DNA of 42,640 bases from an uncultured Mageeibacillus sp. (GCA_964345335.1 CAYFQU010000003.1:4294-46933); one strand, 5' to 3'; shown: positions 7,952 to 42,640, counted from the stretch's first letter. Numbers and translations: made by a program. The notes: generated from the letters alone by a model not told the origin.

Positions 7952-8684
7952 AAAATCTGTTAATCCGAATAAATCTAATCATCATAAATCTTTACCCCAA
8001 AAACGGTCATTCTGGGGCAAATGTATTGCCCTGTTTACCAATATCATCATCAAGGCTTGTGCCGAGGTTGAGTATGTGGGCAAAGAAAATATTCCACAAA
8101 GTATTCCTTATGTCTTAGCACCCAATCATCAAACCTATATTGACGGATTATTTGTCGCCGGCGGATTGCCTAAAGGTCATTTCGAGCACTTTTCGGCTTT
8201 GATCGGTGCTGATTTAAGAACAGATCACGGTTTAATCGGTAAATTAATTGCACCTGTCGCCCGCGGTATTGAAGTGGAGCGTTACGGCAATCCGGTCAGG
8301 GGTTTGGTCATGGCTTATCGTGCTTGCCGAGCCGGCAATATCATCATGGTACATCCGGAAGGCACCAGAACACATGACGGTTATCTTGCTCCTTTGCAGA
8401 GCGGTGCAGCCTATATCGCTCTCAAAAGCCACGTCCCCCTAATCCCCGTCTTCATCGAGGGAGGTTATGATTTCTTTTCCCGCCATGATAAAAGACCGCG
8501 CCTCAGAAATCCTGAAACAAAGCAGAAGTTTAAAATTCGTGTAGTTTATGGAGAACCTTTACATGCAGAAGATTTTGCCGATGCCCATGCTTTAAATACA
8601 GCTTTAGAAACGACCTTAAAAAAGATGGAAGCCGATTTTCTAAAAAGATGCAAAGGAAAAATCCGCAGCGAAAAAACGAAATAG
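7929..8684 (+). CDS. plsC: 1-acyl-sn-glycerol-3-phosphate acyltransferase (lysophospholipid acyltransferase family)
   Basis: NHQTYIDG (HX4D) and PEGTR acyltransferase motifs. The start is set to the ATG at 7929 (MTKQLQ), which is preceded by GGGAG, rather than the upstream in-frame ATG at 7893. It overlaps the end of tadA by 23 nt. Confidence 0.7.
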   Translation: MTKQLQDKKSVNPNKSNHHKSLPQKRSFWGKCIALFTNIIIKACAEVEYVGKENIPQSIPYVLAPNHQTYIDGLFVAGGLPKGHFEHFSALIGADLRTDHGLIGKLIAPVARGIEVERYGNPVRGLVMAYRACRAGNIIMVHPEGTRTHDGYLAPLQSGAAYIALKSHVPLIPVFIEGGYDFFSRHDKRPRLRNPETKQKFKIRVVYGEPLHAEDFADAHALNTALETTLKKMEADFLKRCKGKIRSEKTK

Positions 8685-8708
8685 ACAATTCAATTTGCCT
8701 GAAGCATT

Positions 8709-9968
8709 TTAATCTAAATCATGCAAAATAGGTGCGATAATACCCAGATCTATTTCTCTGATCTTAAAAACAATATCCGCTCCCTGATCTGTATAGGCGA
8801 GGCTTTCAATTAGGGCAAATTTCTGTAATTCCGCCGTGATATTGCCATATTCATAAGGTATCAATAAATGGAAAGGCAGCATACTCTCTTTCGGAATTGC
8901 GATAATTTTTTGTTTTAACGCTTCAATACCTATTTTTTCTTTGGCTGAAATAAAGAATCGATTTAATTCAGGACGGCTGACTTCTTTTAAATGACGAACT
9001 TTTTCCCGGTCAACAAGTTCTATTTTATTAAAAACCTGAATTCTCGGTTTTTGATCTGCCTCAAGTTCTTCCAATTGTCTTTCCACAATATCCATCTGTG
9101 CTTGATATTCAGGATCGGAAAGGTCGGTTACCTGCAGAATAATATCCGCATGAGTCACTTCATCTAAAGTAGATTGAAAAGCTTCAATTAAATGATGCGG
9201 TAATTTTCTGATAAAACCGACCGTATCAATCAAAATAATCGGAATGTCCGCGTCTTTTAATTTTCTGGCTGTCGGATCCAAGGTGGCAAAAACCTGATCC
9301 ATTGTCAATAAATCTGAATCACAAAGTGCATTTAACAAAGTTGACTTGCCGGCATTGGTATAACCGACCACGGCAACTTTTGTCACAGCATTGCGTTCAC
9401 GATAATTTCTGGTCAAAATACGCTGTCTGCGCACTTCTTTTAATTTTTCTCGCAAAAATTTAATGCGGCGTTGAATATGGCGCCGATCCGATTCCAGTTT
9501 TGTTTCACCGGGTCCTCTTGTACCGATTCCGCCGCCCAGTCTGGATAAAGCCTTGCCGGCACCGACTAATCTGGTTGCCCGATCATTTAACTGGGCAATC
9601 TCCACCTGCAGACAACCCTCTTTTGTCTTTGCGTGCAAAGCAAAAATATCTAAAATAATTAATGTTCTGTCCAATACGTTCAAATCCGTTAGCTCACTGA
9701 TATTACGCATCTGTGAACCGCTTAAGCTCAGATCAAGAACGATCGTTTCGGCTTCTAAATCTTTAGCCAGGTCTGCTACTTCCAATAATTTACCGGATCC
9801 GGCTGCATAAGTTGAATCCAGACGACTTTTATATTGAATGGCCTCACCCACAATCTCCAAGCCTGCTGTTTCGGCCAATTCAATCAATTCCCGTAAAGAG
9901 TTCTCCGCCAGTTCTTTGGCATGAAATTCTTCATTGGTGTAAACTCCTAAAACAATTGCTTTACTCAT
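8709..9968 (-). CDS. hflX: GTPase HflX
   Basis: 419 aa. HflX N-terminal domain plus G-domain motifs GYTNAGKSTLLNAL (G1) and DTVGF (G3). Confidence 0.9.
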   Translation of the reverse strand: MSKAIVLGVYTNEEFHAKELAENSLRELIELAETAGLEIVGEAIQYKSRLDSTYAAGSGKLLEVADLAKDLEAETIVLDLSLSGSQMRNISELTDLNVLDRTLIILDIFALHAKTKEGCLQVEIAQLNDRATRLVGAGKALSRLGGGIGTRGPGETKLESDRRHIQRRIKFLREKLKEVRRQRILTRNYRERNAVTKVAVVGYTNAGKSTLLNALCDSDLLTMDQVFATLDPTARKLKDADIPIILIDTVGFIRKLPHHLIEAFQSTLDEVTHADIILQVTDLSDPEYQAQMDIVERQLEELEADQKPRIQVFNKIELVDREKVRHLKEVSRPELNRFFISAKEKIGIEALKQKIIAIPKESMLPFHLLIPYEYGNITAELQKFALIESLAYTDQGADIVFKIREIDLGIIAPILHDLD

Positions 9969-10548
9969 CTAAGGATTTATTGTCTCCGTATCGGGCTAAA
10001 GTTTGACTCACAATTTTATCAAACTGATCATAAGTGATCTGATCATCAAAAAAATATTCCGCCTTCAAAGCTTCTTTGCCAAATGCTTCCTGATAAGCAA
10101 TATGGATCGCAGCCAGCATTTGATTTCTCCAGAAAGTATCTGTCATTTCCAATAATGCCGGCACAATCAAGTGATAAACTTCATCTCCTGCCTTACTTGC
10201 CACTTCATCCGCTTTCATTTTCAGCAGATTGAACAGTTTAGAGCCATAATGTGAATCTGTCGCACAGGATTCCTGATATATTTTTGCTGAATCCACAATG
10301 TTTTCAAAAATAACTTTTTCCGCCAAAGCTCGATTTTCATCAAGCAAGGCTTGTATAGCCTTTTGGGTAAAGAACTGCTCTAACTCTCTTTCCTGACGTT
10401 TAATTACTTTCAAAGAATTTCTTTGGGCAATGGCGATTTTTAAATTTAACCATTGTCCAATAAACAAATCTGCTTCTGTATTTGTTCTGCGATTAATTTT
10501 TTTGAAACGAATTTGCCGTATTTTTTCTCTAGCCATGTCTAAGCTCAT
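9961..10548 (-). CDS. Hypothetical protein, predicted all-helical, coupled between murJ and hflX
   Basis: 195 aa with no recognisable motifs. Its start lies 4 nt after the murJ stop and its stop overlaps the hflX start by 8 nt. Confidence 0.45.
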   Translation of the reverse strand: MSLDMAREKIRQIRFKKINRRTNTEADLFIGQWLNLKIAIAQRNSLKVIKRQERELEQFFTQKAIQALLDENRALAEKVIFENIVDSAKIYQESCATDSHYGSKLFNLLKMKADEVASKAGDEVYHLIVPALLEMTDTFWRNQMLAAIHIAYQEAFGKEALKAEYFFDDQITYDQFDKIVSQTLARYGDNKSLDE

Positions 10549-10551
10549 TTT

Positions 10552-12246
10552 TTATCTCCTTGTCTGCTGTATTTTAGATCTGCCGAATTTTCCTAAAATC
10601 ATAGCTTGTAGATCTCTTGTTTCCTTTAAATTAATCGATATGCCGGCTATATAGAAAACGACAATACCGACTGATCCTTTAATCAAATAAAGCATAATCT
10701 GTAATAATTTACTGGTTGTATAAGAACTGAACACATTCAATGCGGATAAAACAACGACAGTGACAATCACACAATAAGCTATTTTGATTAAAAAAGGTAA
10801 AATCCGATATGGCTTCGCTTTGGGGTTATGGATCTTATATAAAGTATATATGATCAAAGCACCGATAATGCTATAAGAAGCATGTGCCATCGCAATTCCG
10901 TTAATCCCGAAATCAAATACTTTCGTATATAGAATACAAAAAATCGGATTTAAAATTAAAGTGACTATGCCATAGAACAGAGCTGTCTTGGTAACTTTTC
11001 TCGCATAAAAAGCTTGATTGGTCATATAAATAACAGTTTGAGCAATCAAACTGACACAAAACCAACGTAAAATATTACCGACAATGGCTACATCTTCCAT
11101 GGTATATTCCTGGGCGTTCCATTGAAAAATCAATTGGATCGTCTCAAAACTCAGCACATAGAAAATTGCCGCAATAGGTGCGATATAAAAAATTGCTTTG
11201 CGAATACTTTTTGTAAACAATACCCTGACTTTTTTAAAATCCCTTTTGGCATAAAAGCCGGTCATATTCGGCAGCATAACCGTGCCGATCGCTACGGCGA
11301 CAATACCATAAGGCAGCATAAAGGCCTGTTCGGCATGTCTGATCGCAGTTGCCGCACCTACGAATTGATTAGTAAACCAATTCATAATTAAGGAATTTAA
11401 GTGCAATACGGATCCGGAAATCAAAGTCGGAATAGCTAATAACAATAAGCGCTTAAATCCGGGATCGCGATAATCAAAACTTAAATGAAAATATCTGATT
11501 TCATGTCGTGATAGAACCAACTGATAAAGAAAATAAGCAAAAGCAGATCCGACAACACCCCAAGCAACATTTCTTAAACCCTTTTCGCTTTGTTCGCCCA
11601 AAGTCAGCAAGACAATCATATAGAGGATGTTATAAATCATGACGCCGAAAGCCGCTAAACCGAATCGCTTATAAGCATTCAGCACTCCTTGAGTCAAAGA
11701 AATCAAAGTCATGAACACACATTGTAAAAGCAAAATTCGAGATACCGGTATAGCTGCCTGAATCACCTCTTCCGCTTTTCCCGGATTGACGGCCGGCAAA
11801 AGCCAGGGCATGATCAAACCGACCAAAAGTAAAACCACGATCATCGTGGCGCTGGCCAGCGTGATAAATGTGCTAACCGATTTCCAAACCCTCTTTTCCT
11901 GATTGTTTTCAATTCCGCCGGACAGAGTTGGCGTGATAGCGGCCGCTACGGCACCACCGATCAATAAGGCATATAAAAAATCCGGAATAAAAAAGGCAAC
12001 ATAATAAGGATCCGAATACATACCGAATCCCAATTTAGGCGCGACCAGAACCTCTCGTAAAAAGCCGGTAATTTTGGCCATAAAGAAACCGATCATCGAG
12101 ATGATCGTCGCTTTGGCTATGTCCTCAGCAGTATTTGCTTTGATATTATGAGTTCTCCTATGTTTACGGAATAAAGCAGGAGATTTTACTTTTCTATTTT
12201 TATCAGAGTGCTCATCTTCAGAGATGTACAAATTATCTTCCTCCAA
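10552..12246 (-). CDS. murJ: Lipid II flippase MurJ (MviN family)
   Basis: 564 aa multi-pass membrane protein. The conserved MurJ N-terminal region (ISMIGFFMAKITGFLREVLVAPKLGF) follows a Lys/Arg-rich extension of about 45 aa. Confidence 0.75.
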   Translation of the reverse strand: MEEDNLYISEDEHSDKNRKVKSPALFRKHRRTHNIKANTAEDIAKATIISMIGFFMAKITGFLREVLVAPKLGFGMYSDPYYVAFFIPDFLYALLIGGAVAAAITPTLSGGIENNQEKRVWKSVSTFITLASATMIVVLLLVGLIMPWLLPAVNPGKAEEVIQAAIPVSRILLLQCVFMTLISLTQGVLNAYKRFGLAAFGVMIYNILYMIVLLTLGEQSEKGLRNVAWGVVGSAFAYFLYQLVLSRHEIRYFHLSFDYRDPGFKRLLLLAIPTLISGSVLHLNSLIMNWFTNQFVGAATAIRHAEQAFMLPYGIVAVAIGTVMLPNMTGFYAKRDFKKVRVLFTKSIRKAIFYIAPIAAIFYVLSFETIQLIFQWNAQEYTMEDVAIVGNILRWFCVSLIAQTVIYMTNQAFYARKVTKTALFYGIVTLILNPIFCILYTKVFDFGINGIAMAHASYSIIGALIIYTLYKIHNPKAKPYRILPFLIKIAYCVIVTVVVLSALNVFSSYTTSKLLQIMLYLIKGSVGIVVFYIAGISINLKETRDLQAMILGKFGRSKIQQTRR

Positions 12247-12282: not shown

Positions 12283-13812
12283 TTAACCGAATAAAGCAAA
12301 TAATTCCGACATTTCAGAATGTATATTCTCCAAATTCCATAAAAATAATGTACAAGCTAAAGCATCTGCTATCCCCCCGAAAGTCAGCTGATGCGCTGAA
12401 ATCAGTTCATCCAGCTGTTCTAATTCATATTTCATCAGTCCCGGGGTCAATGGTTTTTGCATGATGAGTGCTAATCGAGATTGAATTTGTTTCGCTGTTT
12501 CTAATTGATCATAGCGAATTGCCCTGCTCAGGAATGTAGTATCCTGTAATTGATTAGCTAAAAATAACCAAGTGTATAAACCGGCATCATTAAAATCCCA
12601 ATGTTCCCGCAGACGATCCCTCAAGATCTTCTGCGCCGCAAAACAAATCGCATAACCACTCTCTGCCAGCCCTCTTGCACCTTTTATCTGAAATTGTAAA
12701 AATAATTTTTCTCCGTTTGTCAGATTTTGTGCTGCTTGATTTTTTTGTTCTGCCAGTATCTGTAAATCTTGCATTGCCAGAGAGCCCCATTTTGCCGTAA
12801 TATTTTTAATTTCTTCTGCGTCAGGCAGTAAATTCACCATGGATTTTACTTGTAGGGTTTCAGCTGTTAATTTTTGCTGCAGCAAACAACCATAGGCTCC
12901 CAATAGCAGACCGAAAGAAAAAATAATACCTTTTTGGGTATTGATCTGATCGGTTGCCTTTAACATCTGTACTTCGGCATATCTGCCTGCCCGGCGTAAT
13001 TGCTTAAATAAAACTTCAATATTTTGCCCTTTCCTTCCGAGATAAAAACATTCGCGAAAATAAGCAAGCAAGCAAACACTGCTTTTAATAAAAGTAAAGC
13101 GGCTCATATCTGTATGTGAACCGTGATTTTGCAAATCGACCAAACCCGGTTTCGGCGTGATCATTATTTCTGATAAAATTGCATTTGCGGCGGCATCGAT
13201 CACTTTTTTCGCCAGTGCAGAAAAAATGAACTCTCTCAGCCAATGTTCAATTTCATCGGCCAATTCCTCAAGGGAATGCCTTCTGCTTCTGGCACAAAAA
13301 AAAGCTTCCCGCTCACAGAGAAAACATTGACGGGGCCGCAATTCATTATCAGAAATTTCCTGTCTGGTAATTTTGCGATAATGCAAATGATTCTCCTGTC
13401 TGGCAGCCGGAACATATAAATCCAAATCAAGCAGCCGATAGGCTTTGCCAGGGCAATTTTCCCAAACAGCGATTTTTCCGTTTTCAAATTCTATCAGTTT
13501 TTCTTTGATCTCAGAACTGAAAACCTGTTTGACATCAAGAATAAAATATGCCTCAATGCCCGTTTTAAACGAATATAGATAATGCGCCCGAAGTTTGATC
13601 TGTTCCGCTTTTAAATAATTCATGAATTGTTCAAAAAGAAGTTTGAAAAAATAATCCGTCAGATTTGACCTTTTATAAGGTCCGGGTATATTGAGCAGCA
13701 TTTGAATAACCGGAGCATTCTGTTCATGAATAAAATTTTCAATGCGTAAAGCTCTCGCTTCTCTGCATTCGGCAAGGCTGTCCGTATCGCAATAAAGATC
13801 TGTATGCGGCAT
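12283..13812 (-). CDS. citXG: Fused CitX-CitG enzyme: holo-ACP synthase (apo-citrate-lyase phosphoribosyl-dephospho-CoA transferase) joined to 2-(5''-triphosphoribosyl)-3'-dephospho-CoA synthase
   Basis: 509 aa. The N-terminal roughly 190 aa match CitX; compare RLLDLDLYVP...RPRQCFLCEREAFFCARSRRHSLEEL with E. coli CitX RLWDIDVLTP...[25 protein letters not shown]. The C-terminal roughly 310 aa carry the CitG/MdcB motif TPKPGLVDLQNHGSHTDM. Confidence 0.75.
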   Translation of the reverse strand: MPHTDLYCDTDSLAECREARALRIENFIHEQNAPVIQMLLNIPGPYKRSNLTDYFFKLLFEQFMNYLKAEQIKLRAHYLYSFKTGIEAYFILDVKQVFSSEIKEKLIEFENGKIAVWENCPGKAYRLLDLDLYVPAARQENHLHYRKITRQEISDNELRPRQCFLCEREAFFCARSRRHSLEELADEIEHWLREFIFSALAKKVIDAAANAILSEIMITPKPGLVDLQNHGSHTDMSRFTFIKSSVCLLAYFRECFYLGRKGQNIEVLFKQLRRAGRYAEVQMLKATDQINTQKGIIFSFGLLLGAYGCLLQQKLTAETLQVKSMVNLLPDAEEIKNITAKWGSLAMQDLQILAEQKNQAAQNLTNGEKLFLQFQIKGARGLAESGYAICFAAQKILRDRLREHWDFNDAGLYTWLFLANQLQDTTFLSRAIRYDQLETAKQIQSRLALIMQKPLTPGLMKYELEQLDELISAHQLTFGGIADALACTLFLWNLENIHSEMSELFALFG

Positions 13813-13813
13813 T

Positions 13814-14743
13814 TTAATAGTCCAAAGTGATTTGATTCATCAAACCTAAATCTTGATTATAATCAACCCCGACAATGCCGACTAATAGATAGCGCTTGGT
13901 GAAATCATCAATTAAAAACTCTTTGTGCAAACTGAATTTTTTAATTTGGCCGGTCGACTCCGCCTGCATTCTCGGTCCGGTACAATAGTGCAAATATTCT
14001 CCGATATTGACATGCATTTCATCCTGATAAGAAATCGGCAAATCCAAATCTATCAAATGTTTAACTTTCGCTTCCAATTCCTGAATATCAAAATTAGGCT
14101 TTTCTTCAAAAGAGATGATGAAACCATGTCTGACATCCCCATGCGAATATTGCCCGACATGATATTCTTGCAGGCAATGTTCCACCAATAATTCCGCAGA
14201 TGCCGTATGTCTTCTGTTTTTAATGGATTTAAAAACAATGCGGGATATCATGTCCGGCTCCGGGCCGAATATATTGGGTCTGGTAATGATGATCTCCTCA
14301 CCGACGCCGATCAATAAATGAGCATTGATGCCCAAAATCGGATAAATTAAATCAAAATGTTCAACAATGACACGATCATGCCTTTTTAGAGCTCTTTTAA
14401 TCGCATCGGCGATCACGTGCAATTGGGTAAAAGCTGATTCAAAGCGAATATCAACATGATAAGTATGAGGTCTGAAAAAGCCGTGCTCATCAACATCAAG
14501 CAAGGGCAAAGGTCTGATATTGACGCCGTTGTCATCATTGGTCAATTCAAGACCCGGAAACATCCCTTTGATCAACATACTTTTACCTGATCCGCTTTCG
14601 CCGATCACCCCGATTAACAAATCAAAAGGGCTCATATATTGCTGAGCAATTTGCATCCCCTGATCCGCCATTCGAACATATCCTCGGGGTGCTAAATGAA
14701 CACTGTATAAATGACTTCTCTGCATTCTATCAGAATAAGACAT
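13814..14743 (-). CDS. Uncharacterised P-loop NTPase, translationally coupled to citXG
   Basis: 309 aa. Walker A GVIGESGSGKSM at residues 45-56 resembles OppD-type or dephospho-CoA-kinase-type P-loops, but there is no ABC signature and no other recognisable domain. AGGAGG ribosome-binding site. Its stop lies 1 nt from the citXG start. Confidence 0.5.
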   Translation of the reverse strand: MSYSDRMQRSHLYSVHLAPRGYVRMADQGMQIAQQYMSPFDLLIGVIGESGSGKSMLIKGMFPGLELTNDDNGVNIRPLPLLDVDEHGFFRPHTYHVDIRFESAFTQLHVIADAIKRALKRHDRVIVEHFDLIYPILGINAHLLIGVGEEIIITRPNIFGPEPDMISRIVFKSIKNRRHTASAELLVEHCLQEYHVGQYSHGDVRHGFIISFEEKPNFDIQELEAKVKHLIDLDLPISYQDEMHVNIGEYLHYCTGPRMQAESTGQIKKFSLHKEFLIDDFTKRYLLVGIVGVDYNQDLGLMNQITLDY

Positions 14744-14771
14744 GATGACCTCCTGTTGACAACCATTATTG

Positions 14772-14803
14772 CTTTATATTCCTTATAGCAAAGGAATATA
14801 AAG
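14772..14803. promoter_or_regulatory. Perfect 13-bp inverted repeat (CTTTATATTCCTT-N6-AAGGAATATAAAG) between mal and the P-loop gene
   Basis: Read directly from the sequence. Neither strand has a T-tract after it, so it is not a classical intrinsic terminator. It could be an operator, an RNA-processing site or an attenuator hairpin. Confidence 0.4.
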
Positions 14804-14860
14804 CAAAATTCTCATCGATAAAGCTATGATTTTATTAACCAAACAATCGCCAATAAAAAT

Positions 14861-16105
14861 TTAGGATAGAGCGGCTTTCATTGCTAAAATTCTCTGCATT
14901 TCATTATAGACGATCATATAACCTTCATCGACACCCATGCCGGGTTTTGCCAAAATCTGATCGGGATTGATTCCCATCGCAATTTGCGTGCATATTCTTG
15001 CAGAGTAATCTGTTTCATTACAGGTGCCGCCCATATAAGCCAGTACATGATGCTCTTTACAATAGATCACAGCTTCCGCAATATTATTCACCCCGCCTAA
15101 ATCCGGAGTTTTAATTTGGATCATATGGCCGGCTTTCGCTTCGGCAAAAAGTTTAATATCCTCCAAAGTATTACACCATTCATCAGCCACCAGAATAACC
15201 GGAATTTTTCTTTCATCTAATAAAGCTGTCAAATTCTTCAAATTGGTCATCACTTCTTCACGATTATGACCGTCTAAAGGACCTTCTATTTGCAATTGAA
15301 ACGGCTTGCATAATTCGGCTAACTCCGATAAATAATCAGCCATCACGGAATAATTTGTTTCGCCGAATAATTCACCGATTGTACCATAGACATCAATATG
15401 GATAATCGGTTGATAATCAGCATCATGGCGTAAGTGGATAATTCTTTCTTTTAACCAGCTCACATACTCTTTCAGAATTTCGCCATGTTCGCCCAGTTTT
15501 GTTTTGACATTATTGATCAATGCATGAGGTAAAACATCCGCTTCTTTAATGATCATCTTATCGGCATTGCTGTGACGATCATCACCGCTTTGGGTAAAAA
15601 TCGGAATGGCTTTGGCGGCAACTTGATTATGGTATTCTTCGGCGATCACATCGCAGATCATAACATGCTTCGCTTTGGCAACAGCATCTAAAAGAGCCTG
15701 ACTGAAACCGTAACGGATGGCTGTATGCAGCCTTTTGCCGTTAATTTTAATCTGTTCTAACTCTTCCGCCATTTCCCGAAAACAGGTAATTTCCTTATTT
15801 TCATATATAGGTATTAAATATTGCTCAATCATCGGCAGAAAATCTTTTGCTATGAACAGCGGATCTCTGCCGCCGGCACCGGAATATTGCACCGCTGCAC
15901 AATCGCCCTGTGCAATTTGTCCGTCTTCCAAAATCAACATAACCGAGATCGATTCTCCGGCTTGACGAACGGCTTTGAAACCTTCTGTTTCAACCTCTCC
16001 GACCAAGGCGAAACCATCATTTTTCGCACCATGCTTGATGGCTAATTGATCATCAAAGTAAAAACCTGATTTGCCTGCAGAACATATTACCTTTTTAATT
16101 TTCAT
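14861..16105 (-). CDS. Methylaspartate ammonia-lyase (beta-methylaspartase)
   Basis: 414 aa. Strong identity along its length to Clostridium tetanomorphum MAL as I recall it (GESISVMLILEDGQIAQGDCAAVQYSGAGGRDPLF, KEADVLPHALINN, HMIQIKTPDLGGVNNI). Confidence 0.9.
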   Translation of the reverse strand: MKIKKVICSAGKSGFYFDDQLAIKHGAKNDGFALVGEVETEGFKAVRQAGESISVMLILEDGQIAQGDCAAVQYSGAGGRDPLFIAKDFLPMIEQYLIPIYENKEITCFREMAEELEQIKINGKRLHTAIRYGFSQALLDAVAKAKHVMICDVIAEEYHNQVAAKAIPIFTQSGDDRHSNADKMIIKEADVLPHALINNVKTKLGEHGEILKEYVSWLKERIIHLRHDADYQPIIHIDVYGTIGELFGETNYSVMADYLSELAELCKPFQLQIEGPLDGHNREEVMTNLKNLTALLDERKIPVILVADEWCNTLEDIKLFAEAKAGHMIQIKTPDLGGVNNIAEAVIYCKEHHVLAYMGGTCNETDYSARICTQIAMGINPDQILAKPGMGVDEGYMIVYNEMQRILAMKAALS

Positions 16106-16142
16106 ATCTATATCCTCTCAAAATTAAATGTCCTTTTATCAT

Positions 16143-17594
16143 TTATCTGGGTCTTCCGACCAAGCGACCTTTGCTGATCGCATAAACATCGTCAATTACC
16201 ATCTGGAAAGAAGCTTCTCTTTTTTCATACTTTGCTCTTTCCGCCATTTTTCTTTGATGAAACTCTTTAAGCTCCGCCGTAAAAGGTATGTTCCCCATAT
16301 TAAAAACACGAATGGCACCTTCATTATCTCGTGCCGGCAGCATTTTGCCTGCATTATAACGGCTCGGAGCGAACGGTATATCGATAACGCCGGCCTGTAT
16401 GGCACGAATCGCACCGAGAGCAATATCTCCTTCGCCCAATTCCAGACATTTATTGACGACACAGCGTGTTTCGGAAGAAATGATCACCTTTTCATCGAGT
16501 ACATCCTCCGTATTCAGGAGCTGATCGTGCAGCATGCTGATAATCTGTTTGGTCGTTCTTAAACCGGCTGCATTCGCTTCTTTCGTCGGCACACCCAGCG
16601 CTTCATGCGGCGTTTTCACAATAACTTTCGTCGCATGGGATAAGGCCGCTACAACGGAGCCCCAGGCGATCACGGAATAAGCTTTCGCTTCATCCTGCGG
16701 GAAGCCGCCCATCCATTGATGTAAAACAGTCGTCACTTCCACATCGCCATAACCGAAACGATGTAAATATTCTTCGGTCAAGATTTTCAAAGTTTGCAAA
16801 GCGGCTACATCCTGGACTAAATTGCCGCATTGCCCATAGCCTACCGTAATGTTCTTCACGCCTTGTTCAGCCGCCAAAAGGCTTTCGATAATAGCGACCG
16901 AATGAGAAATAAAAGGCGGAACCAAAGTTCCTGTCAAAGGACCGTAGGGTTCACGATTGATCGGAGCTCCTGCTTCCTCGTAAATACCGGTCAAACGATC
17001 AACATACTGCCAATCGCGAATTGTTTCTTCCAAGGATACATTTTTGGCATAAGGTATATTATAAGAAATACCGCCGCCTTCATATGAAGTAAAACCTCCG
17101 GCATAGGTAATTTCGGTTAAAAGGCGGGCATCCGGTGTGCCGTGACGAATCTGCACCGGTATATCCAGGCTTTCAATGATCTGACGGCAACTGTTAACAC
17201 CATGATTGACAGCAGGAAAGCCATTCAACATCGATTTTGAATTTTTGATACTTTCCTCTATTCCGATTTCCGCTTCTTTATAACGATTTTGTCTGGTATA
17301 GCTGTCAATTGTCGTCGGCAGAAGATCTGCTTCGCCTTCATTTTGTAAATAGGTTAATAAGTCAATATGTTCTCTGATCAGGGCAACGCCTGCTCTGGGC
17401 TGAATTAAAGTATCACCGGCTGCTTTTGCTTTACTCAATTTCAAACTGAAAACTTTATTCTCAGGTAAATTTTTATGAAATTCTATCGCTTCTTCCAGGT
17501 TGACATCTTTGCCAGTCGGCCATTGCTGCAAGACTTCTTCTCTGATTTTATAAAATTCATCATTGCTGATCTTTTGATTTTTTACCTCATTCAC
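16143..17594 (-). CDS. glmE: Glutamate mutase epsilon (E) subunit
   Basis: 483 aa. Near-collinear match to clostridial GlmE/MutE ([80 protein letters not shown]). Confidence 0.9.
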
Positions 17595-18963
17595 GATAAA
17601 GCTCCTTATGCATAATTTTTAAGGCTGTTTCAGGATAAGACTCGGCTAGTAATCCCATCGCTGACAGTATATATTTCTGATCTCTGACAATTTGTACTTT
17701 TAACGGTTTTAAAGCTGTCGGACAAGTCATATCAAATTCAATCGCTTCCACAAATTCCGCAGGGTTGTCGGCATGGATTAAGGCACCTCCGGTTAAAATG
17801 GCAGTTTCTACATTTCTTAAATCTTTGCCTTTTTGCATATAAGCTTTACCCATCGGTGTATAGACTTCTTCCAGAGTACCGGCATGGCGCTCCACCGCTT
17901 TTTTGACAGCTAATTTCGCCATGAGCAAATCAAATTCTCTTTCCGCAGAGTTTTCCGGCAAAAGATCCGTATAGCAGGAAAATTTTTGTAATAGCTCTTC
18001 CGTTCTCTGCTCGCTTTGGTGTAACTGTTCGGCAATATAAGAAATTCCATATTCTTCCACAATGCCCCGCAGGGAGTAGCGCATGCCTAAATCACCCTCG
18101 ACTGTTCTTTTCGCAAAAGGCTCTTTGATACCCTTGATAACGGTATTGATATTCTGAGGATTGCCCTCGCAAAAAGAATAAACATCGGTGGTAGCACCGC
18201 CTAAATCGACAGCGAGCAAATCGCCTTTCCCTTTAATGTGCTGATCGCCTAATGACAATAATCGCATCGCTTTCATCATGGCAACCGGTGTCGGCATCAG
18301 AATATTGGAAATCAATGAAGCAATTTTGGAAATTCCCTTTGCTTCAATAATTTTTTCCAAAAAAATCTCACGGATCTTAGCTTGCACCTCTTCGATTTCA
18401 ATTTGCTGGACAGACGGCAATACATTCTTGCAAAAATACACATTTGTATTTTGCAAAATCGTTTTTATGTCATCATAGGTGCTGCGATTGCCGGCCACAA
18501 GAATCGGGAAATCCGGTTTCAGCGCGGCTAATATTTTCGCGTTATGTAAAATACAATCCCGATTTCCTCCATCCGTACCGCCCGTCAACAAAAAGATATC
18601 CGGATTCAATTCAGATATTTCTCTGCCGTCGGAAGAAATCATTTCATGTGCATAAACTTTAATGATTTTCGCCCCTGCGCCAAGGGCAGCTAATCTTGCC
18701 GCCTCCACCGTCAACTCAGGAACCAGGCCAGAAACAATCATCCGCAGACCGCCTGCCGCACTGGAACAGGCCTTCATTTCAGAAAATTCAAGTTTTCCTA
18801 TCTGTTCCCGCAATATATCCATAGCTGTCTGAAAACCGTTTTGCAAATCGGTTTCTACCGTTGTATAAGCAGCGGCGGTGCCAAGAATTTTCGCCTGTTC
18901 TTGATCTACGGCAGTCAATTTTGTCCAGGTGCTGCCGAAATCACATAATAAAACTCTCTTCAT
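17587..18963 (-). CDS. glmL: Glutamate mutase reactivating chaperone GlmL/MutL
   Basis: About 458 aa. [13 protein letters not shown]-terminus of the ASKHA-like fold. Its position between glmS and glmE matches the clostridial mutS-mutL-mutE order. The start is placed at the ATG at 18963 (MKRVLL), 10 nt after the glmS stop. The ORF track's 18987 start overlaps glmS and has no ribosome-binding site. Confidence 0.75.
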
Positions 18964-18973
18964 CAAGCACCAA

Positions 18974-19387
18974 CTATTCTGTGACATGCAGGTCTTTTTT
19001 CATATAATCAATCGTGACCTGCGGATCCGTTCCCGGTGGGAAAACACGATCAAAGCCCATTTGATAAAAACGCTCTTTCACTTCTTCAAAAGGTTGTTTT
19101 CCAACAACGATATTGCCTCCTACATAGAGCAAAATACCCTTTAAACCGGCTTCATCACATTTTTCTCTCAAGCCGCGGCAATCGAGTTCACCATGTCCGT
19201 ATAATGAAGACACCAGAATTGCATCAGCATCAGTTTCAATAGCGGCAGCTATAAATTCTTCCTGCGAAACCATCACTCCTAAATTCGTTACAGCGAAACC
19301 GGCTTCACTAAAAGCAAAATCCAGAATTCTGATACCGACCGCATGCACATCCGCCCCGATCACTCCCATTACGACTTTTTTCTTCAT
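18974..19387 (-). CDS. glmS: Glutamate mutase sigma (S) subunit, B12-binding
   Basis: 137 aa with the DxHxxG cobalamin-binding motif (DVHAVG). Near-identical in length and sequence to clostridial GlmS/MutS. Confidence 0.9.
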
Positions 19388-20430
19388 ATTTGATGTATGC
19401 CTCCATTCATTTGCATTCGTTTTAAAGTTCTTTTTTTATCATCGATTTTTTCCAATAGATAATGTAATGACCCATTTTCAGCGGTCAACTGAAAGTCAAT
19501 AATTTTTCCTTTATTCCTTTGATAATTTTTTAGCCGGCTGATTATCTGCTGTGAAGAAACATAAAGCAGATTACTTGGTAAAAATATATAATTTACCTTA
19601 TCTAAAAAGGTATCGATCTGATCATCATTCAGCAGGCAAATCAGCGGCTCTTTTTCAGGCTGTACTAAAGCGACAATTTGTTCTTTCATCAAATCGGCAA
19701 AGCTCATCGTATGAGTCAAAATGCCGATTTGTTTCTTTGCTCTGACCGATGCCATCTCCAAGACCGTTTGAGGGGTCAGATTCAAGCCTAATATCAAGAT
19801 GTCGATTGAAACATGATAAGAATTGAGCAAAGTACTGATTCTTTGATAATTATCTGTTGTCGTCAAAATCGCATCTAAATTATCCAACAAAACATCTCCC
19901 GAATAAGCGAGTTCATCGATCGGATAACGATATGTTTCCAGATTGGATATTCCTGTTAAGTAATTTTGCAGGATTGTACGAATTTCAGAAGATTCCGCCA
20001 CAATACCGATTTTTAAATTTTCTTCACTTTTTTCGCGTTCGCGCATTTTTAAATCAAAATAAATTTGTATTTCACGATCGGAAAAACCTAAATTTTCAAA
20101 AGTTTCCAGCATATTGTCCAAAGCTGACAAAGCTTGGTCTTTACGGCTGACATCGGTTGTTTCCTGTGGCTTGATAAAAGATCCCTTGCCGGTTATTCGA
20201 TAAATATAGCCATTATTTTCCAAATAATTGTAACTTTGTTGTATTGTACCGCGCGCAACGTCTAAAGAATCCGCCAAAGCTCTGACGGAAGGCAATTGTA
20301 TTGTCGCGGCCGATAAGTCTGTTTGATCGGCTTCAATCAAATCAATGATTTGCTGTGCAATTTGCAAATAAATCGGATTTGCGTCTTCAGCATTGACCTT
20401 TATGTTTGTTACATCAAATATCTTGCTCAT
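19384..20430 (-). CDS. GntR-family transcriptional regulator with a C-terminal domain of about 250 aa that I cannot assign
   Basis: 348 aa. The N-terminal winged helix-turn-helix ([41 protein letters not shown]) is GntR-type. The C-terminal region matches none of the standard GntR effector domains that I can recognise by eye. It is embedded in the operon: an ATGA overlap with glmS and a 1-nt gap after the hydratase beta gene. Confidence 0.65.
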
Positions 20431-20431
20431 T

Positions 20432-21037
20432 TTATTCCTGTATATCGGTCAAATTGAATGGAGCAGACTTATTTTGTTGCTTTATTTGCGCTAAATATTG
20501 CCGCGGCCCTTCTTCATATAAATTAGTACCCCAACTGTCGACAATAACTGTTAAAGGCATTTTTTCCACTGTCAGACGACGTACGGCTTCTGTTCCCAAA
20601 TCTTCAAAAGCGATAATCTCCGCTTTTTTAATCGACTTTGCCAAAACAACCGCCAAACCTCCTACCGCACCGAAATAAACCGCTTTATTTTTGATCATTG
20701 ACGCGATCACAGATTCCGATCTGCGCCCCTTGCCGATCATGCCTTTTAAACCTAAATCAAGTAATGCCGGCGCAAAGGCGTCCATCCGATAGGCAGATGT
20801 CGGTCCGGCTGAACCGATCACCTGTCCCGGGACAGCAGGTGTAGGACCGACATAATAAATGACTTGTCCTTGTGGATCAAAAGGTAGTTCTGCACCCTGA
20901 TCCAATAATTCAATGAAACGTTTATGAGCGGCATCTCTTGCTGTATAGAGAATACCTGATAAATAAATACGATCCCCAGCCTTTAAGCTCGCTATCAAAT
21001 CATCATTTAAAGGCGTTGTCAGATAATGCTCCATCAT
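20432..21037 (-). CDS. Class I fumarate hydratase-type Fe-S hydro-lyase, beta subunit (candidate mesaconase subunit)
   Basis: About 202 aa. The tartrate/fumarate hydro-lyase beta domain is recognisable (LKAGDRIYLSGILYTARDAAHKRF, GMIGKGRRS). The start is placed at the ATGATG that overlaps the alpha gene's stop codon (ATGA), with a GGAGG ribosome-binding site 7 nt upstream. The ORF track's longer 20432..21070 ORF has no ribosome-binding site. Confidence 0.75.
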   Translation of the reverse strand: MMEHYLTTPLNDDLIASLKAGDRIYLSGILYTARDAAHKRFIELLDQGAELPFDPQGQVIYYVGPTPAVPGQVIGSAGPTSAYRMDAFAPALLDLGLKGMIGKGRRSESVIASMIKNKAVYFGAVGGLAVVLAKSIKKAEIIAFEDLGTEAVRRLTVEKMPLTVIVDSWGTNLYEEGPRQYLAQIKQQNKSAPFNLTDIQE

Positions 21038-21873
21038 AATTCCTCCGTAGCATGTCTCGCGACATGGCATTGAATATTAACAGCGACTGGCAAGCCTGCT
21101 ATATGTGTCGCATAAGTATTGATCTTAACCGCCAGAGCTGTAGTGGCACCGCCGAACCCCTGCGGTCCGATCCCCAAGCAGTTGATTTTCCGGAGCAGAT
21201 CTCTTTCCATAGCAGCGTAAAAAGGATCGCTGTTCAGATCATCCATTGAACGCAACAGGGATTTTTTCGCCAAAAGAGCCGCACGGTCAAATGTACCGCC
21301 GATGCCTACCCCTACGATCAGCGGCGGGCAGGCATTGGGCCCTGCCTCTTTGACCACCTGCAGGATAAAATCTTCAACCCCTTTTTTCCCGTCAGATGGC
21401 TTGAGCATTTTAATCTGGCTCATATTTTCACTGCCGAAACCTTTCGGAGCGACCGTTATTTTCATTTTATCGCCGGGCACCAAGTCCATATAAATCACGG
21501 CAGGTGTATTGTCATTCGTATTGGTTCTGCGCAAAGGATCGGCGACAACACTTTTTCTTAAATAACCTTCCGCATAGCCTTTGCGTACTCCTGCATTGAC
21601 CGCCTCTTCAAGATTCCCGATCAGATGTATCTCCTGACCTATTTCTAAAAACACAACTGCCATACCTGTATCCTGACAGATCGGCATATGTTCCCGTTCA
21701 GCTAACTCAAAATTATTTTGAATATCCTGCAGAATATTTTGAGCGATGCCCCAGGATTCACTCTCTCCCGATCGTTTAATTTGAGCTCTGACATCAAGCG
21801 GTAAATCAATATTTGCTTTCATACATAAACTAGCAATCGGTTCGATCAATTCTTCGACATAGATCGTTCTCAT
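21034..21873 (-). CDS. Class I fumarate hydratase-type Fe-S hydro-lyase, alpha subunit (candidate mesaconase subunit)
   Basis: 279 aa tartrate/fumarate hydro-lyase alpha domain, with conserved cysteines (CQDTGMAV, GIGPQGFGG, CHVARH). It sits at the head of the glutamate mutase / methylaspartase operon. Class I fumarases are the known mesaconases of the methylaspartate pathway. Confidence 0.75.
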   Translation of the reverse strand: MRTIYVEELIEPIASLCMKANIDLPLDVRAQIKRSGESESWGIAQNILQDIQNNFELAEREHMPICQDTGMAVVFLEIGQEIHLIGNLEEAVNAGVRKGYAEGYLRKSVVADPLRRTNTNDNTPAVIYMDLVPGDKMKITVAPKGFGSENMSQIKMLKPSDGKKGVEDFILQVVKEAGPNACPPLIVGVGIGGTFDRAALLAKKSLLRSMDDLNSDPFYAAMERDLLRKINCLGIGPQGFGGATTALAVKINTYATHIAGLPVAVNIQCHVARHATEEL

Positions 21874-21890
21874 CTAAAGCTCCCTTTACA

Positions 21891-21926
21891 GTGATATAGT
21901 ACGGTTTATACAATGTACTATGTCAC
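21891..21926. promoter_or_regulatory. Inverted repeat GTGATATAGTAC-N12-GTACTATGTCAC in the leader of the operon
   Basis: 12-bp arms matching at 11 of 12 positions, spacer 12 bp, read directly from the sequence. It lies 18 to 53 nt upstream of the first start codon of the operon, just upstream of the GGGAG ribosome-binding site. Each arm begins GT and ends AC, as GntR-type operators do. Confidence 0.4.
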
Positions 21927-22009
21927 ATTAAAATTATATTAAAAACATCCATCAGGAACGCTTGTCTATTTCGTATGAAATCAATAAAAAAACAGAGAGA
22001 TTTTGTGCG

Positions 22010-22049
22010 GAATAAGAAAAGCCGACAAATCATAAAGATATTGTCGGCT
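22010..22049 (-). terminator. Rho-independent terminator after ahpF; could act in both directions
   Basis: Perfect 9-bp stem AGCCGACAA/TTGTCGGCT with a 12-nt loop, followed by TTTTCTTATT on the minus strand and by ACGTTTTTAT on the plus strand. Confidence 0.65.
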
Positions 22050-22080
22050 ACGTTTTTATAAAATTTTGACAAAAGAAGCA

Positions 22081-23619
22081 TCAGCTATTTCTGATTAAAT
22101 AATCGAAGGCACCTAATGAAGCGATCGCACCGCTGCCCATGGAAATCATAATCTGTTTATAGGCAACAGTCGTACAGTCTCCCGCTGCAAACACTCCGGG
22201 CATACTGGTCTGACCATGTGCGTCGATTTCAATTTGTCCCATGTGATCCATCTTAACCCGATCCTTAATCCATTCCGTATTCGGTTTCAAACCGATTTGC
22301 ACGAATACACCAGCTAAGTCAAGATGTGTTTTTTCATCGGTTTCCCTATCCTTGAAGGTAATCCCGTTCACTTTGTTTTCACCGGTTATTTCAGTTGTCA
22401 CCACATTGGTAAATATTTCAACATTGGGCAGAGAACGCAAACGCTTCTGCAAAACTTGATCTGCTTTCAGCTCCGGTAAAAATTCGATCAAAGTTACTTT
22501 ATTGACAATACCCGCCAGATCAATCGCCGCTTCCACGCCGGAATTTCCGCCGCCGATCACAGCGACATCTTTGCCTGCAAACAGAGGACCGTCACAGTGC
22601 GGACAATAGGCAACGCCTTTCGTTTTAAACTCTTTTTCGCCCGGAACATTGATATCTCTCCAATGGGCACCTGTCGCAATAATGACAGTTTTCGAGATCA
22701 GATAAGCACCGGAAGCCAAAAGAACTTTGATTCGTTTATCTTCTAATGTTTCCAAATCAACAATATCATGCCCTTCAAAGAGCTCAATATTGTATTTTTC
22801 CACATGCTTACGAATTTGCTGCATCAGCTTAGGCCCTTCAGTGTATTCCACACCAATAAAGTTCTCTATGCCTAGGGTATCATTCACTTGACCGCCGAAA
22901 CGCTTCGTAATGATACCGGTACGAATGCCCTTTCTGGCAGCATAAATAGCCGAGCTGCAACCAGCCGGGCCTCCGCCAATCACCAAAACATCAAAGGGTT
23001 CAACATCGTCGAAAGAAACTTCTTCCTCATCGGCGATCAGATCGATCAATTCATCCAAAGTTTGTCTGCCGCTGGCAACTTGTATATCTCCGTCGAATAC
23101 CGCAGGCACTGCCATGATTCCCCTTTGCTCTGCGAGATCCTGAAACATACCACCTTCAACCATCGTATGAGAAATCAAAGGATTTAACACAGACATAATA
23201 TTCAAGCCCTGTACAACATCCGGACAATTATGGCAGGTCAAACTGGCAAAGGTTGTAAACTCATGCTTGGAATGAATCTTCTCAATTCTCTTTCTTTGCT
23301 CATCCGAAATCTTAGGAGCACGCCCTCCGACTTGCAATAAAGCCAATACAAAGGACTCGAATTCATGACCTAAAGGGATTCCGGCAAAAGTAATACCCGA
23401 AGCCTCTTGACCTTTCTGATTGATCTGAAAACTGGGCGTATACTCAAGCTGTGCTTCTTCCATACTTAATTTATCTGAAAGCTCAATAATCTCCTGCAAA
23501 AACTGTTTGGTTTTTTGGGAATTTTCACTTTCATCTAAAGATGCATGAAAGACGATCGGATTTTCCAATAATTCTAAATATTGTGATAATTGTTGTTTAA
23601 GCTTTGTATCCAAACTCAT
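22081..23619 (-). CDS. ahpF: Alkyl hydroperoxide reductase subunit F
   Basis: 512 aa. The N-terminal thioredoxin-like domain carries the CHNCPDVVQ redox motif. The C-terminal half is a thioredoxin-reductase-like FAD/NAD domain (GGGPAG, CPHCDG, GGGNSG). Confidence 0.85.
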   Translation of the reverse strand: MSLDTKLKQQLSQYLELLENPIVFHASLDESENSQKTKQFLQEIIELSDKLSMEEAQLEYTPSFQINQKGQEASGITFAGIPLGHEFESFVLALLQVGGRAPKISDEQRKRIEKIHSKHEFTTFASLTCHNCPDVVQGLNIMSVLNPLISHTMVEGGMFQDLAEQRGIMAVPAVFDGDIQVASGRQTLDELIDLIADEEEVSFDDVEPFDVLVIGGGPAGCSSAIYAARKGIRTGIITKRFGGQVNDTLGIENFIGVEYTEGPKLMQQIRKHVEKYNIELFEGHDIVDLETLEDKRIKVLLASGAYLISKTVIIATGAHWRDINVPGEKEFKTKGVAYCPHCDGPLFAGKDVAVIGGGNSGVEAAIDLAGIVNKVTLIEFLPELKADQVLQKRLRSLPNVEIFTNVVTTEITGENKVNGITFKDRETDEKTHLDLAGVFVQIGLKPNTEWIKDRVKMDHMGQIEIDAHGQTSMPGVFAAGDCTTVAYKQIMISMGSGAIASLGAFDYLIRNS

Positions 23620-23628
23620 AGCAAATCC

Positions 23629-24192
23629 TTAAATTTTTCCGACTAAATCCAATCCCGGTGCTAATGTTTCACCGTTTTCTCTCCATTTTGCAGGACATAC
23701 TTGACCGGGGTTATTTCTGACATATTGTGCAGCTTTTACTTTGTTGATAAAGTCAGCTCCGTTTCTGCCGATACCGTCTGCATTGATTTCAACAGCTTGA
23801 ATGACTCCATCCGGATCAATCAGGAATGTAGCACGTTGAGCCAAACCTGTCTCTTCATCACAGACATCCAATTGACGTGATAAAACTCTTAAAGGATCGG
23901 CCAGCATAACATATTCAATTTTGGAAATAGCATGCGATTGATCATGCCAGGCTTTATGCACAAAATGGCTGTCCACAGAACATGAATAAACTTCAACGCC
24001 TAAACTTTTAAATGTTTCATAGTTATCTTGTAAGCTTTCCAACTCGGTTGGGCAAACAAAAGTGAAATCAGCAGGATAGAATGCTAAAAGATTCCATTTA
24101 CCCATAAAATCTTCGTTTGTCACTTCAATAAATTCATCATTATGATAGGCATGCACCTTAAATTCTTCTAATTTTTTTCCAATAATCGGCAT
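23629..24192 (-). CDS. ahpC: Peroxiredoxin AhpC
   Basis: FTFVCPTEL peroxidatic-cysteine motif. The start is set to MPIIGKK (187 aa), which has a perfect AAGGAGG ribosome-binding site. The ORF track's 217-aa version carries a 30-aa N-terminal extension with no ribosome-binding site. Confidence 0.85.
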
Positions 24193-24325
24193 AATAAAAT
24201 TCCTCCTTAATTTGCGTTTATTGACAAATGAAGTATAGCATATCATTTTTCCTAAATTAAATACGCCTGTTTTCTGTACCATTTGTGCCTATATTATTAA
24301 GGAGAAAAAATAAGGAGAAAAAATT

Positions 24326-24970
24326 TCAGATTTTTAATTTCGCACGGTTTCGGGCGATGAGTTGATCGATCAAACGCTGTAAAGCTCGGAAAAGAATTAA
24401 ATACAGCAAAGGGAAAAAGATGCTGACCAAAATAACGAACAGAACAACCAGACCTCCTATGATGATACCGCTCGCCACTGATGCGATCGTACTGCCTAGA
24501 CTGCCCAAAAAGTTAAATACATCCCCGCTGAAAACCATAATTTTATCAAAGATAATCAGAAAAGCATCTGAATAATTAGAAATATCAAGAGAAAGATAAG
24601 GGACAAAAAACTGAATAAAAGCCGCAAATAAAAATAAATATTGCAAGATATAGCCCAGAAGAATCAGCAGGCGCAAACCGATATTTATTCTATAATATTG
24701 TGCAGCGGCAAAAGGCAAAGCGATTAACAGTAAAAGCCCGACCATTAAGTTGACAGGCAGAGAAAAGCGGATCAAGAATGCAAATTTATCAGGAAAAAAA
24801 GCATTGGACAAAGTGAACAGAAATACAATCAAGCTGATCGTTATAAAAAGAAAATGATGTCTGCGATCATGATAATCGGAATCAGTCCAATATTTACCTA
24901 AAAAAAAGCCTTCCCAATACTCCATTTTACTTTTAGTACTCCGTTTTACAATATTATAATTTAAACTCAC
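24326..24970 (-). CDS. Hypothetical polytopic membrane protein
   Basis: 214 aa, 5 to 6 predicted transmembrane segments, no recognisable motif. It overlaps the upstream 125-aa gene by 17 nt. Confidence 0.5.
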   Translation of the reverse strand: MSLNYNIVKRSTKSKMEYWEGFFLGKYWTDSDYHDRRHHFLFITISLIVFLFTLSNAFFPDKFAFLIRFSLPVNLMVGLLLLIALPFAAAQYYRINIGLRLLILLGYILQYLFLFAAFIQFFVPYLSLDISNYSDAFLIIFDKIMVFSGDVFNFLGSLGSTIASVASGIIIGGLVVLFVILVSIFFPLLYLILFRALQRLIDQLIARNRAKLKI

Positions 24971-25331
24971 GCCTGGCTATTTTTTCAATCGCCAGCGTCA
25001 CTTTTCGCCAGTCCTCAGTCGTTATATCATAGCCTTTAATTTCAATTTTATCTTCAGCCTTGCCGGCCTGAATTGTCCAGACATATTCTTTCGGCGTATC
25101 CGGTTTCTCTATGCTTTCAGCTTTATTTGTCTCAATAAAATCAAACAAGATTTCCTTTACCGGATCAATCTGATGTTTCGGCAAACCTCGCACAAAATTA
25201 TTATACCAATGATTGCTGTCTTTCCACGATAAAATATTAGAAGTAAAGTCAAAATGAATCGTTATATATCCCTTCTTATAGCCTGATAGTTCACAAACAA
25301 CCCATGTATATTTATCTGTTTTTCCTGTCAT
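24954..25331 (-). CDS. Hypothetical cytoplasmic protein
   Basis: 125 aa, no signal peptide or transmembrane segment, no recognisable motif. Translationally coupled to the downstream membrane protein. Confidence 0.45.
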   Translation of the reverse strand: MTGKTDKYTWVVCELSGYKKGYITIHFDFTSNILSWKDSNHWYNNFVRGLPKHQIDPVKEILFDFIETNKAESIEKPDTPKEYVWTIQAGKAEDKIEIKGYDITTEDWRKVTLAIEKIARREFKL

Positions 25332-42148: not shown

Positions 42149-42640
42149 TTATTCTTCTTCAATAAATTTCGGTCTTAAAACATACTTCGTATGTAAGAGA
42201 TGATGAGCCTTTTCGCCCCCGACTTCTCCCAGAAATTCTTTATATAATTTTTGAATTGATTCATTCTGATAAGATCTTCGGATTGTTTTATTGCGATCTG
42301 CCTGATGGATAGCCGCTTCACGTTTATCCAAAACAGTTAAATCTCCGTGATGGAAGGGTTGACCGCCGCCATCGATGCAGCCACCCGGACAAGCCATGAT
42401 TTCAATAATATCGTATTGTTTATCACCTTTACGAATATCATTCAATAAGTTGGCCGCATTCCCTAAACCGCTCGCTACCGCAATTCTGATCTCACGCCCC
42501 TGAATGTCGACCGTGGCTTCTTTCAGACCTTTCACACCGCTTAATTCAGCAAATTCAATATGCTCCAAATCCTCACCAGTAATCATATGATAGGCTGTTC
42601 TGAGTGCAGCCGTAGAAACACCGCCGGAAGCCCCAAAAAT
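42149..42640 (-). CDS. [FeFe]-hydrogenase H-cluster domain, C-terminal part; the gene continues beyond the window edge
   Basis: The ORF stays open to position 42640. Hand translation upstream of the listed start gives FGASGGVSTAALRTAYH, which matches the conserved HydA GGVMEAALR region. The CPGGCIDGGGQP motif and the C-terminal small-subunit-like domain follow. Confidence 0.65.
   Translation of the reverse strand: MFGASGGVSTAALRTAYHMITGEDLEHIEFAELSGVKGLKEATVDIQGREIRIAVASGLGNAANLLNDIRKGDKQYDIIEIMACPGGCIDGGGQPFHHGDLTVLDKREAAIHQADRNKTIRRSYQNESIQKLYKEFLGEVGGEKAHHLLHTKYVLRPKFIEEE

Follow-up and report, generated by a model that had tools for sequence, protein, structure and literature searches.

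The 42.6 kb stretch of DNA from an uncultured Mageeibacillus sp. analyzed here (the window) carries a gene cluster predicted to ferment glutamate by the coenzyme B12-dependent methylaspartate route. As judged from its sequence, the cluster is of a known kind and has a layout typical of its clade, one that related Clostridia from guts and digesters commonly share. The reading we favor, with moderate confidence, is that of a two-module methylaspartate locus in a Mageeibacillus-like clostridium (Saccharofermentanales), from which the lyase genes citDEF have been removed, most probably to lie elsewhere in the genome, and in which a P-loop protein serves as an accessory factor of the core pathway. 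Nine co-directional open reading frames (ORFs) occupy positions 12283-21873 of the minus strand, with ends exactly where the initial annotation had placed them. That annotation spoke of an operon of ten genes. Its coordinates and gene calls stand, and its count does not, since ten is reached only by splitting the CitX and CitG halves of a single fusion of 509 amino acids (aa). In whole-window numbering, and listed from mesA onward, the genes are:

21034-21873, minus strand: MesA; PF05681 Fumerase, 383 bits; NF004885, 413 bits (cutoff 276)
20432-21070, minus strand: MesB; PF05683 Fumerase_C, 188 bits; NF005310, 287 bits (cutoff 238), match from residue 13
19384-20430, minus strand: GntR-family regulator, 348 aa; PF00392, 34.7 bits (cutoff 27), residues 21-86, a weak match
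18974-19387, minus strand: GlmS, B12-binding sigma subunit of glutamate (methylaspartate) mutase; TIGR01501, 215 bits (cutoff 136); PF02310
17587-18987, minus strand: GlmL/MutL, mutase accessory (reactivating) protein; NF040745, 605 bits (cutoff 475); PF13941, 557 bits
16143-17594, minus strand: GlmE, the mutase's catalytic epsilon subunit, starting with GTG; TIGR01503, 773 bits (cutoff 390)
14861-16105, minus strand: methylaspartate ammonia-lyase (MAL), 3-methylaspartate to mesaconate and NH3; TIGR01502, 577 bits (cutoff 286); MAAL_N and MAAL_C
13814-14743, minus strand: P-loop protein, 309 aa; Walker A motif GESGSGKS; no Pfam or NCBIfam match
12283-13812, minus strand: CitX-CitG fusion (CitXG), 509 aa; PF03802, 104 bits, and PF01874, 180 bits, each matched over the entire model

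The gene identities were checked against Pfam and NCBIfam profiles, in which GlmE, GlmS, GlmL, MAL, Fumerase, Fumerase_C, CitX and CitG were all matched. Each of the nine ORFs is intact, and the models are matched over their full length. MesA and MesB match as the alpha subunit and the beta subunit, respectively, of a two-subunit class I iron-sulfur (Fe-S) hydro-lyase. From their gene context, and following Kronen and Berg (PMC4682846), we take them to be a putative mesaconase that converts mesaconate to (S)-citramalate. The profile matches support the functional reading proposed at the outset, in which the enzymes leading from glutamate to citramalate and the CitX and CitG maturation functions are present and the lyase is absent.

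These assignments are consistent with the following scheme. Module 1 would consist of mesA-mesB-gntR-glmS-glmL-glmE-mal, with the GntR-type regulator inside it. The B12-dependent mutase GlmS/GlmE, serviced by GlmL, would convert L-glutamate to 3-methylaspartate, methylaspartase would yield mesaconate, and the Fe-S hydratase MesAB would produce (S)-citramalate. Module 2 would comprise the P-loop gene and citXG, translationally coupled across a gap of 1 nucleotide (nt) and followed by murJ. CitG would make 2'-(5''-triphosphoribosyl)-3'-dephospho-coenzyme A (CoA), and CitX would attach the prosthetic group to the acyl-carrier subunit of citramalate lyase. The lyase, encoded elsewhere, would split citramalate into acetate and pyruvate. 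Along with citDEF, citC would have left the locus in this lineage, most probably for another place in the genome, and the P-loop protein would be a pathway-specific, ATP-dependent accessory factor for the mutase, methylaspartase and mesaconase.

Relatives of the locus were gathered by means of the P-loop protein. This gave 556 in species-representative genomes, from which 80 species-level loci with flanks of up to 10 kb were kept (numbered with the prefix L), and gene context was assigned from hidden Markov model (HMM) tables. The closest relatives are metagenome-assembled genomes (MAGs) also labeled 'uncultured Mageeibacillus sp.', with P-loop proteins 88% (L009, from the CAYFSZ01 MAG) and 76% (L008, on the same contig as L004, from GCA_964346695.1) identical to that of the window. 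A GlmS-GlmL-GlmE-MAL string was present in 40 of the 80 loci, GntR immediately upstream of glmS in 26, MesB-GntR-GlmS in 16, and the entire MesA-MesB-GntR-GlmS-GlmL-GlmE-MAL string in 15; many of the loci without the full string sit on truncated contigs. Bittarella massiliensis has the same gene order as the window. Clusters with GntR, GlmS/E, MutL, Mal, MesAB, CitDEF and CitCXG have already been drawn for many Clostridia (Kronen and Berg 2015, PMC4682846, legend to Fig. 4). The initial annotation had listed the regulator in mid-operon and the hydratase-first order as departures from the clostridial arrangement. Given the counts among relatives and the published clusters, whose gene set includes GntR and MesAB, both features are normal for the clade. 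The textbook mutS-mutL-mutE-mal order is a mere fragment of the arrangement that most Clostridia have.

With the Clostridia of that figure (C. tetanomorphum, C. tetani, Blautia hansenii, Alkaliphilus and others), the window shares the gene set and the inferred chemistry from glutamate to citramalate. It differs from them in having neither citDEF nor citC, in the fusion of CitX to CitG, and in carrying a P-loop/AlaX-like gene, unmentioned in the paper, between mal and citXG. The window itself contains no new mechanism, and what it would contribute is the addition of a Mageeibacillus-like lineage to those that ferment glutamate by the B12-dependent methylaspartate route. The regulator consists of an N-terminal winged helix-turn-helix and a C-terminal domain of ~250 aa. 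Its residues ~100-348 gave no match in the local Pfam/NCBIfam collections, and the orthologues in L002 and L003 are annotated there as GntR plus PF27163 YmtS_Ross.

A third departure, the presence of maturation genes without the lyase that they would serve, proved to be truly uncommon. Among loci with adequate flanks, CitXG or CitG without a lyase was found in only five cases: the window, L008, L009, L029 (MAL-Ploop-CitG-MurJ) and L017 (Ploop-CitG-MurJ, without Glm, MAL or Mes genes closer than 10 kb). Within the window, neither Pfam nor six-frame HMM scans found CitD, CitE, CitF or CitC, in agreement with what had first been noted. An unfiltered six-frame HMM scan of the whole window for these four families and for AtuA and DUF4387, which are considered below, gave a best hit of only E=1.2. 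Window ORFs of ≥100 aa outside the cluster (leaving out the terminal 145-aa ORF at 42149-42586) matched no lyase-related Pfam family. Those with a Pfam match are housekeeping genes, and three have none (6599-7357, 24326-24970 and 24954-25331). The possibility of lyase genes hidden in the window is ruled out by the Pfam searches of the ORFs together with the six-frame scans.

Complete relatives of the locus retain these genes. They fall into two arrangements, MesA-MesB-(GntR)-GlmS-L-E-MAL-Ploop-CitD-CitE-CitF-CitC-CitG in L006 and L010-L013, and MAL-CitD-CitE-CitF ... Ploop-CitXG in L016, L023, L026, L027, L044 and L052. Their orthologues stand in the same order as in the window, with P-loop proteins 62-66% and GlmE 76-80% identical to those encoded there. 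CitD-CitE-CitF, with or without CitC, follows the P-loop gene or lies between MAL and the P-loop gene in these loci, whereas in the window, L008 and L009 it does neither. In a neighbor-joining tree of P-loop proteins, the clade formed by the window, L009 and L008 is nested in a larger clade dominated by CitDEF-type clusters. Since the nearest outgroups hold citDEF in the cluster, the lyase genes appear to have been lost from this locus, and the loss or relocation of citDEF(C) would be the simplest history.

The state of CitXG bears on whether the lyase has moved or is gone altogether. CitG is a triphosphoribosyl-dephospho-CoA synthase, and CitX is the holo-acyl carrier protein (ACP) synthase for ACPs of the citrate/citramalate lyase type. 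A CitX-CitG fusion has been described for the citrate lyase system of Haemophilus influenzae. The protein in the window has the same CitX-then-CitG order in one polypeptide, with both Pfam domains at full length (CitX at ~13234-13779 and CitG at ~12340-13197; 103.8 and 180.3 bits, respectively, against Pfam gathering thresholds of 25 and 27). Unlike the citrate lyase fusions, it does not adjoin lyase genes, and it scores under the NCBIfam equivalog cutoffs. The CitXG proteins of the window and L009 are 44.1% identical. For comparison, the P-loop proteins of the pair are 87.7% and the GlmE proteins 91% identical, and with MAL included the range is 86-91%. A similar disparity is seen between L023 and L027, which carry citDEF and whose P-loop proteins are 87.5% and CitXG proteins 43.4% identical. 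In the three species represented by the window, L008 and L009, the CitXG frame is open, at a length of 506-513 aa. The relative divergence of CitXG, no greater than in lyase-bearing lineages, argues against a decaying relic. Synonymous sites are saturated at identities of 34-44%. As CitXG evolves no faster here than in those lineages, and its frame is intact, citDEF probably resides elsewhere in the genome, and we favor this over a relic.

The tight packing reported at first, with ATGA overlaps and 1-nt spacings, was borne out by readings of the junctions. MesA and MesB share an ATGA overlap provided that MesB begins with its 12th codon (ATG at 21035-21037, with GGAGG ahead of it), which is likely to be the true start. 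A gap of 1 nt separates MesB from GntR, GntR and GlmS overlap by ATGA, and GlmL and GlmE overlap by 8 nt. The remaining gaps are 37 nt (GlmE-MAL), 117 nt (MAL-P-loop) and 1 nt (P-loop-CitXG). Two noncoding features accompany the genes:

21874-22080, minus strand: upstream intergenic region; read directly, a hairpin, an AT-rich stretch and then a ribosome-binding site, AAAGGGAG, ahead of the MesA ATG
14769-14806, minus strand: perfect 16-bp AT-rich hairpin, TTGCTTTATATTCCTT-TGCTAT-AAGGAATATAAAGCAA, within the 117-nt MAL/P-loop spacer

The upstream hairpin (22021-22048) is terminator-like and ends the ahpCF unit; it consists of GCCGACAA, 12 nt and TTGTCGGC, followed by TTTTCTTATT. The AT-rich stretch is the presumed mesA promoter. 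Consensus scans for promoters and terminators returned counts at the level of shuffled sequence and were uninformative.

The MAL/P-loop spacer marks the boundary between the two modules. It folds with a free energy of -33.9 kcal/mol (z = -5.2), and its hairpin has no T-tract and is not kept in the sister species L008 or L009. The spacer was also considered as a deletion scar or a conserved regulatory element; the hairpin being unconserved in these two species, no conclusion was drawn. Support for a two-module structure comes from other loci. In L016 and L023, opposite-strand genes separate MAL-CitDEF from Ploop-CitXG, so that the latter pair, organized identically to that of the window, forms a unit of its own; and a Ploop-CitG/XG(-MurJ) block recurs in L017, L029, L016, L023 and others. 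At the far end, murJ begins 36 nt beyond citXG with no terminator-like site between them, so the 3′ end of the operon is set by function and not by structure. The order Ploop-CitG/XG-MurJ is also found in L004/L008, L017 and L029, as a conserved syntenic block.

The P-loop protein, which the initial annotation had listed and passed over, is the most interesting part of the locus. Its closest folds are those of a TsaE/YjeE-like P-loop ATPase for the N-terminal domain and of an AlaX/threonyl-tRNA synthetase (ThrRS) editing-like domain for the C-terminal domain. By sequence, no Pfam or NCBIfam model places it in the TsaE family at E≤0.01, and the likeness is one of fold only. The C-terminal domain has the fold of AlaX and aminoacyl-tRNA synthetase editing domains. 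In an alignment of the family, H201, C254 and R258 do not vary and stand within the patterns H201-x4-H206 and C254-TGP-R258. As read from this alignment, the motif looks altered with respect to the AlaX and ThrRS/alanyl-tRNA synthetase editing site, with HxxxxH and CxxxR in place of HxxxH and CxxxH. In comparison with TsaE/YjeE and AlaX/editing proteins, no solved structure joins both domains, and the context is amino acid fermentation, not tRNA modification or editing. A profile search of PDB sequences with the P-loop protein matched the Walker A motif only.

The family is compact and extremely conserved: 77 positions are the same in all of 28 sequences. Its 3510 homologues bear no NCBI name other than 'alanine-tRNA synthetase second additional domain-containing protein', and our literature searches for this protein or for DUF4387 found nothing. 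Searched exhaustively by HMM, 1.84 billion representatives yielded only 326 matches, mostly fragments, and no distant relatives of the family. Two odd fusions, P0219 and P0265, look like chimeric gene calls and were set aside. Methylaspartate-pathway genes lie within 10 kb of the P-loop gene in 74 of 80 species. Among the 80 loci the gene directly follows MAL in 18 and DUF4387 in 33, and precedes MesA in 14. As it accompanies CitDEF-type (18) and AtuA/DUF4387-type (33) clusters alike, the gene tracks the core pathway and not the lyase, which suggests, with low confidence, that the protein serves the conserved core. It offers a lead in its own right, being a very highly conserved and unstudied ATPase/editing-domain protein that travels with the pathway in hundreds of species.

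Several observations weigh against the two-module reading with a relocated lyase. No lyase gene is seen in the window, and its presence elsewhere in the genome is something that we infer. CitX scores 103.7 bits with TIGR03124 (cutoff 105.25) and CitG 204 bits with TIGR03125 (cutoff 272.3), both below the NCBIfam equivalog cutoffs. In L008 (=L004), MAL at 8636-9864 is split over two frames with ~38 codons gone, and the gene caller gives only a 194-aa C-terminal fragment; this could be a real frameshift, signaling decay of the pathway in that lineage, or an MAG assembly error. The P-loop gene directly precedes CitX/CitG in 13 loci, which leaves room for a role tied to prosthetic-group synthesis or CitG chemistry. 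Finally, given the 117-nt spacer with its strong hairpin and the lack of a terminator before murJ, transcription may be single or dual.

Some of these points would also fit a truncated or decaying pathway, in which citramalate lyase is truly lost and CitXG is a relic or has another target. The pathway would then stop at citramalate or mesaconate, to be excreted or handled by an unrelated cleavage route, for example a CoA-transferase and a citramalyl-CoA lyase, or the locus would be turning into a pseudogene cluster. This is unlikely, although CitD/E/F/C and AtuA/DUF4387 are all missing from the 42.6 kb, L008 and L009 are equally devoid of lyase genes, MAL is apparently frameshifted in L008, CitX and CitG fall short of the equivalog cutoffs, and E. 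coli O157:H7, with no detectable citramalate lyase activity (PMC4682846), provides a precedent. Set against it are the nine intact ORFs with full-length model matches, a CitXG frame that has stayed open despite >55% protein difference and whose relative rate equals that of lyase-bearing lineages, and the 86-91% identity that the window and L009 retain in GlmE, MAL and the P-loop protein. Still less probable is a pair of unrelated neighbors, with the operon ending at mal and Ploop-citXG(-murJ-...) being a separate unit that serves either a genuine citrate lyase or some other enzyme dependent on phosphoribosyl-dephospho-CoA, in both cases encoded elsewhere: the stable hairpin in the mal/P-loop spacer, the L017 block without Glm, MAL or Mes genes, the independent Ploop-CitXG units of L016 and L023 and the terminator-free citXG-murJ junction would suit it, but the hairpin has no T-tract and is unconserved, the P-loop gene lies <10 kb from pathway genes in 74/80 species, and CitDEF directly adjoins MAL and the P-loop gene in complete clusters, which argues for this Cit set being part of the glutamate pathway.

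The two-module reading can be set beside a second family of clusters among the 80 loci. AtuA (PF07287/DUF1446) with DUF4387 is present in 33 of them and CitDEF in 18, and no locus has both, so that the two behave as strictly mutually exclusive terminal modules, placed after methylaspartase. The 33 AtuA-type loci never hold CitX or CitG. The E. coli cluster (NZ_CP028745.1, 3391074-3392758) is of the AtuA type, and the window holds neither AtuA/DUF4387 nor CitDEF. In E. coli O157:H7, which possesses mutase, MAL and mesaconase, no citramalate lyase activity is detectable, and it is not known what becomes of the citramalate (PMC4682846); the same paper is the sole literature that we found on DUF1446 in the context of a methylaspartate cluster. 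Because AtuA+DUF4387 is exclusive with CitDEF, and E. coli is of the AtuA type without detectable lyase activity, the pair is a candidate to take over the final step. The pattern suggests that it substitutes for citramalate lyase without being homologous to it, or that it gives the C5 acid another fate. The exclusivity points to an unknown enzyme system for this final step, which in pathogenic E. coli lacks an explanation.

E. coli O157:H7-type clusters have the order glmS-glmL-glmE-mal-AtuA/DUF1446-DUF4387-transporter-fumD-cobO. These and the AtuA-type clusters found in Oscillospiraceae, Treponema and Anaerolineae have a mutase/GlmL/MAL/mesaconase core in common with the window, and CitDEF is found at neither. 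They differ in that the AtuA-type clusters carry AtuA+DUF4387 and no CitX/G, and the window carries CitXG and no AtuA/DUF4387. The E. coli cluster has no P-loop/AlaX-like gene and has the adenosyltransferase CobO; a 314-aa hypothetical protein encoded upstream of its glmS was examined as a possible P-loop homologue and is unrelated. A broader proposal, which we advance tentatively and regard as somewhat more doubtful than the two-module reading itself, is that the P-loop protein is an obligatory, unrecognized ATP-dependent accessory factor whose target is the mutase/methylaspartase/mesaconase core or the cofactors of that core, kept with either terminal module, and that AtuA+DUF4387 disposes of citramalate or mesaconate by non-homologous means. 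If true, the AtuA+DUF4387 route would explain what happens to citramalate in clusters of the E. coli O157:H7 type.

The surroundings of the cluster differ on its two sides. Beyond citXG, the packed run continues on the minus strand at 8709-12246 with murJ, a DUF6553 gene and hflX, separated by gaps of 36 nt and 3 nt and then an 8-nt overlap. Upstream, ahpC-ahpF (22081-24282, minus strand) stands between mesA and a group of conserved neighbors composed of a SpoU gene and ORFs of 125 aa and 214 aa. It is absent at that position in L004, and is a lineage-specific insertion beside an oxygen-sensitive pathway. The 214-aa and 125-aa ORFs (24326-25331, minus strand) overlap each other and belong to no Pfam family, and the pair keeps its place between the cluster and the gene for the SpoU methylase in L004 (201 aa and 125 aa).

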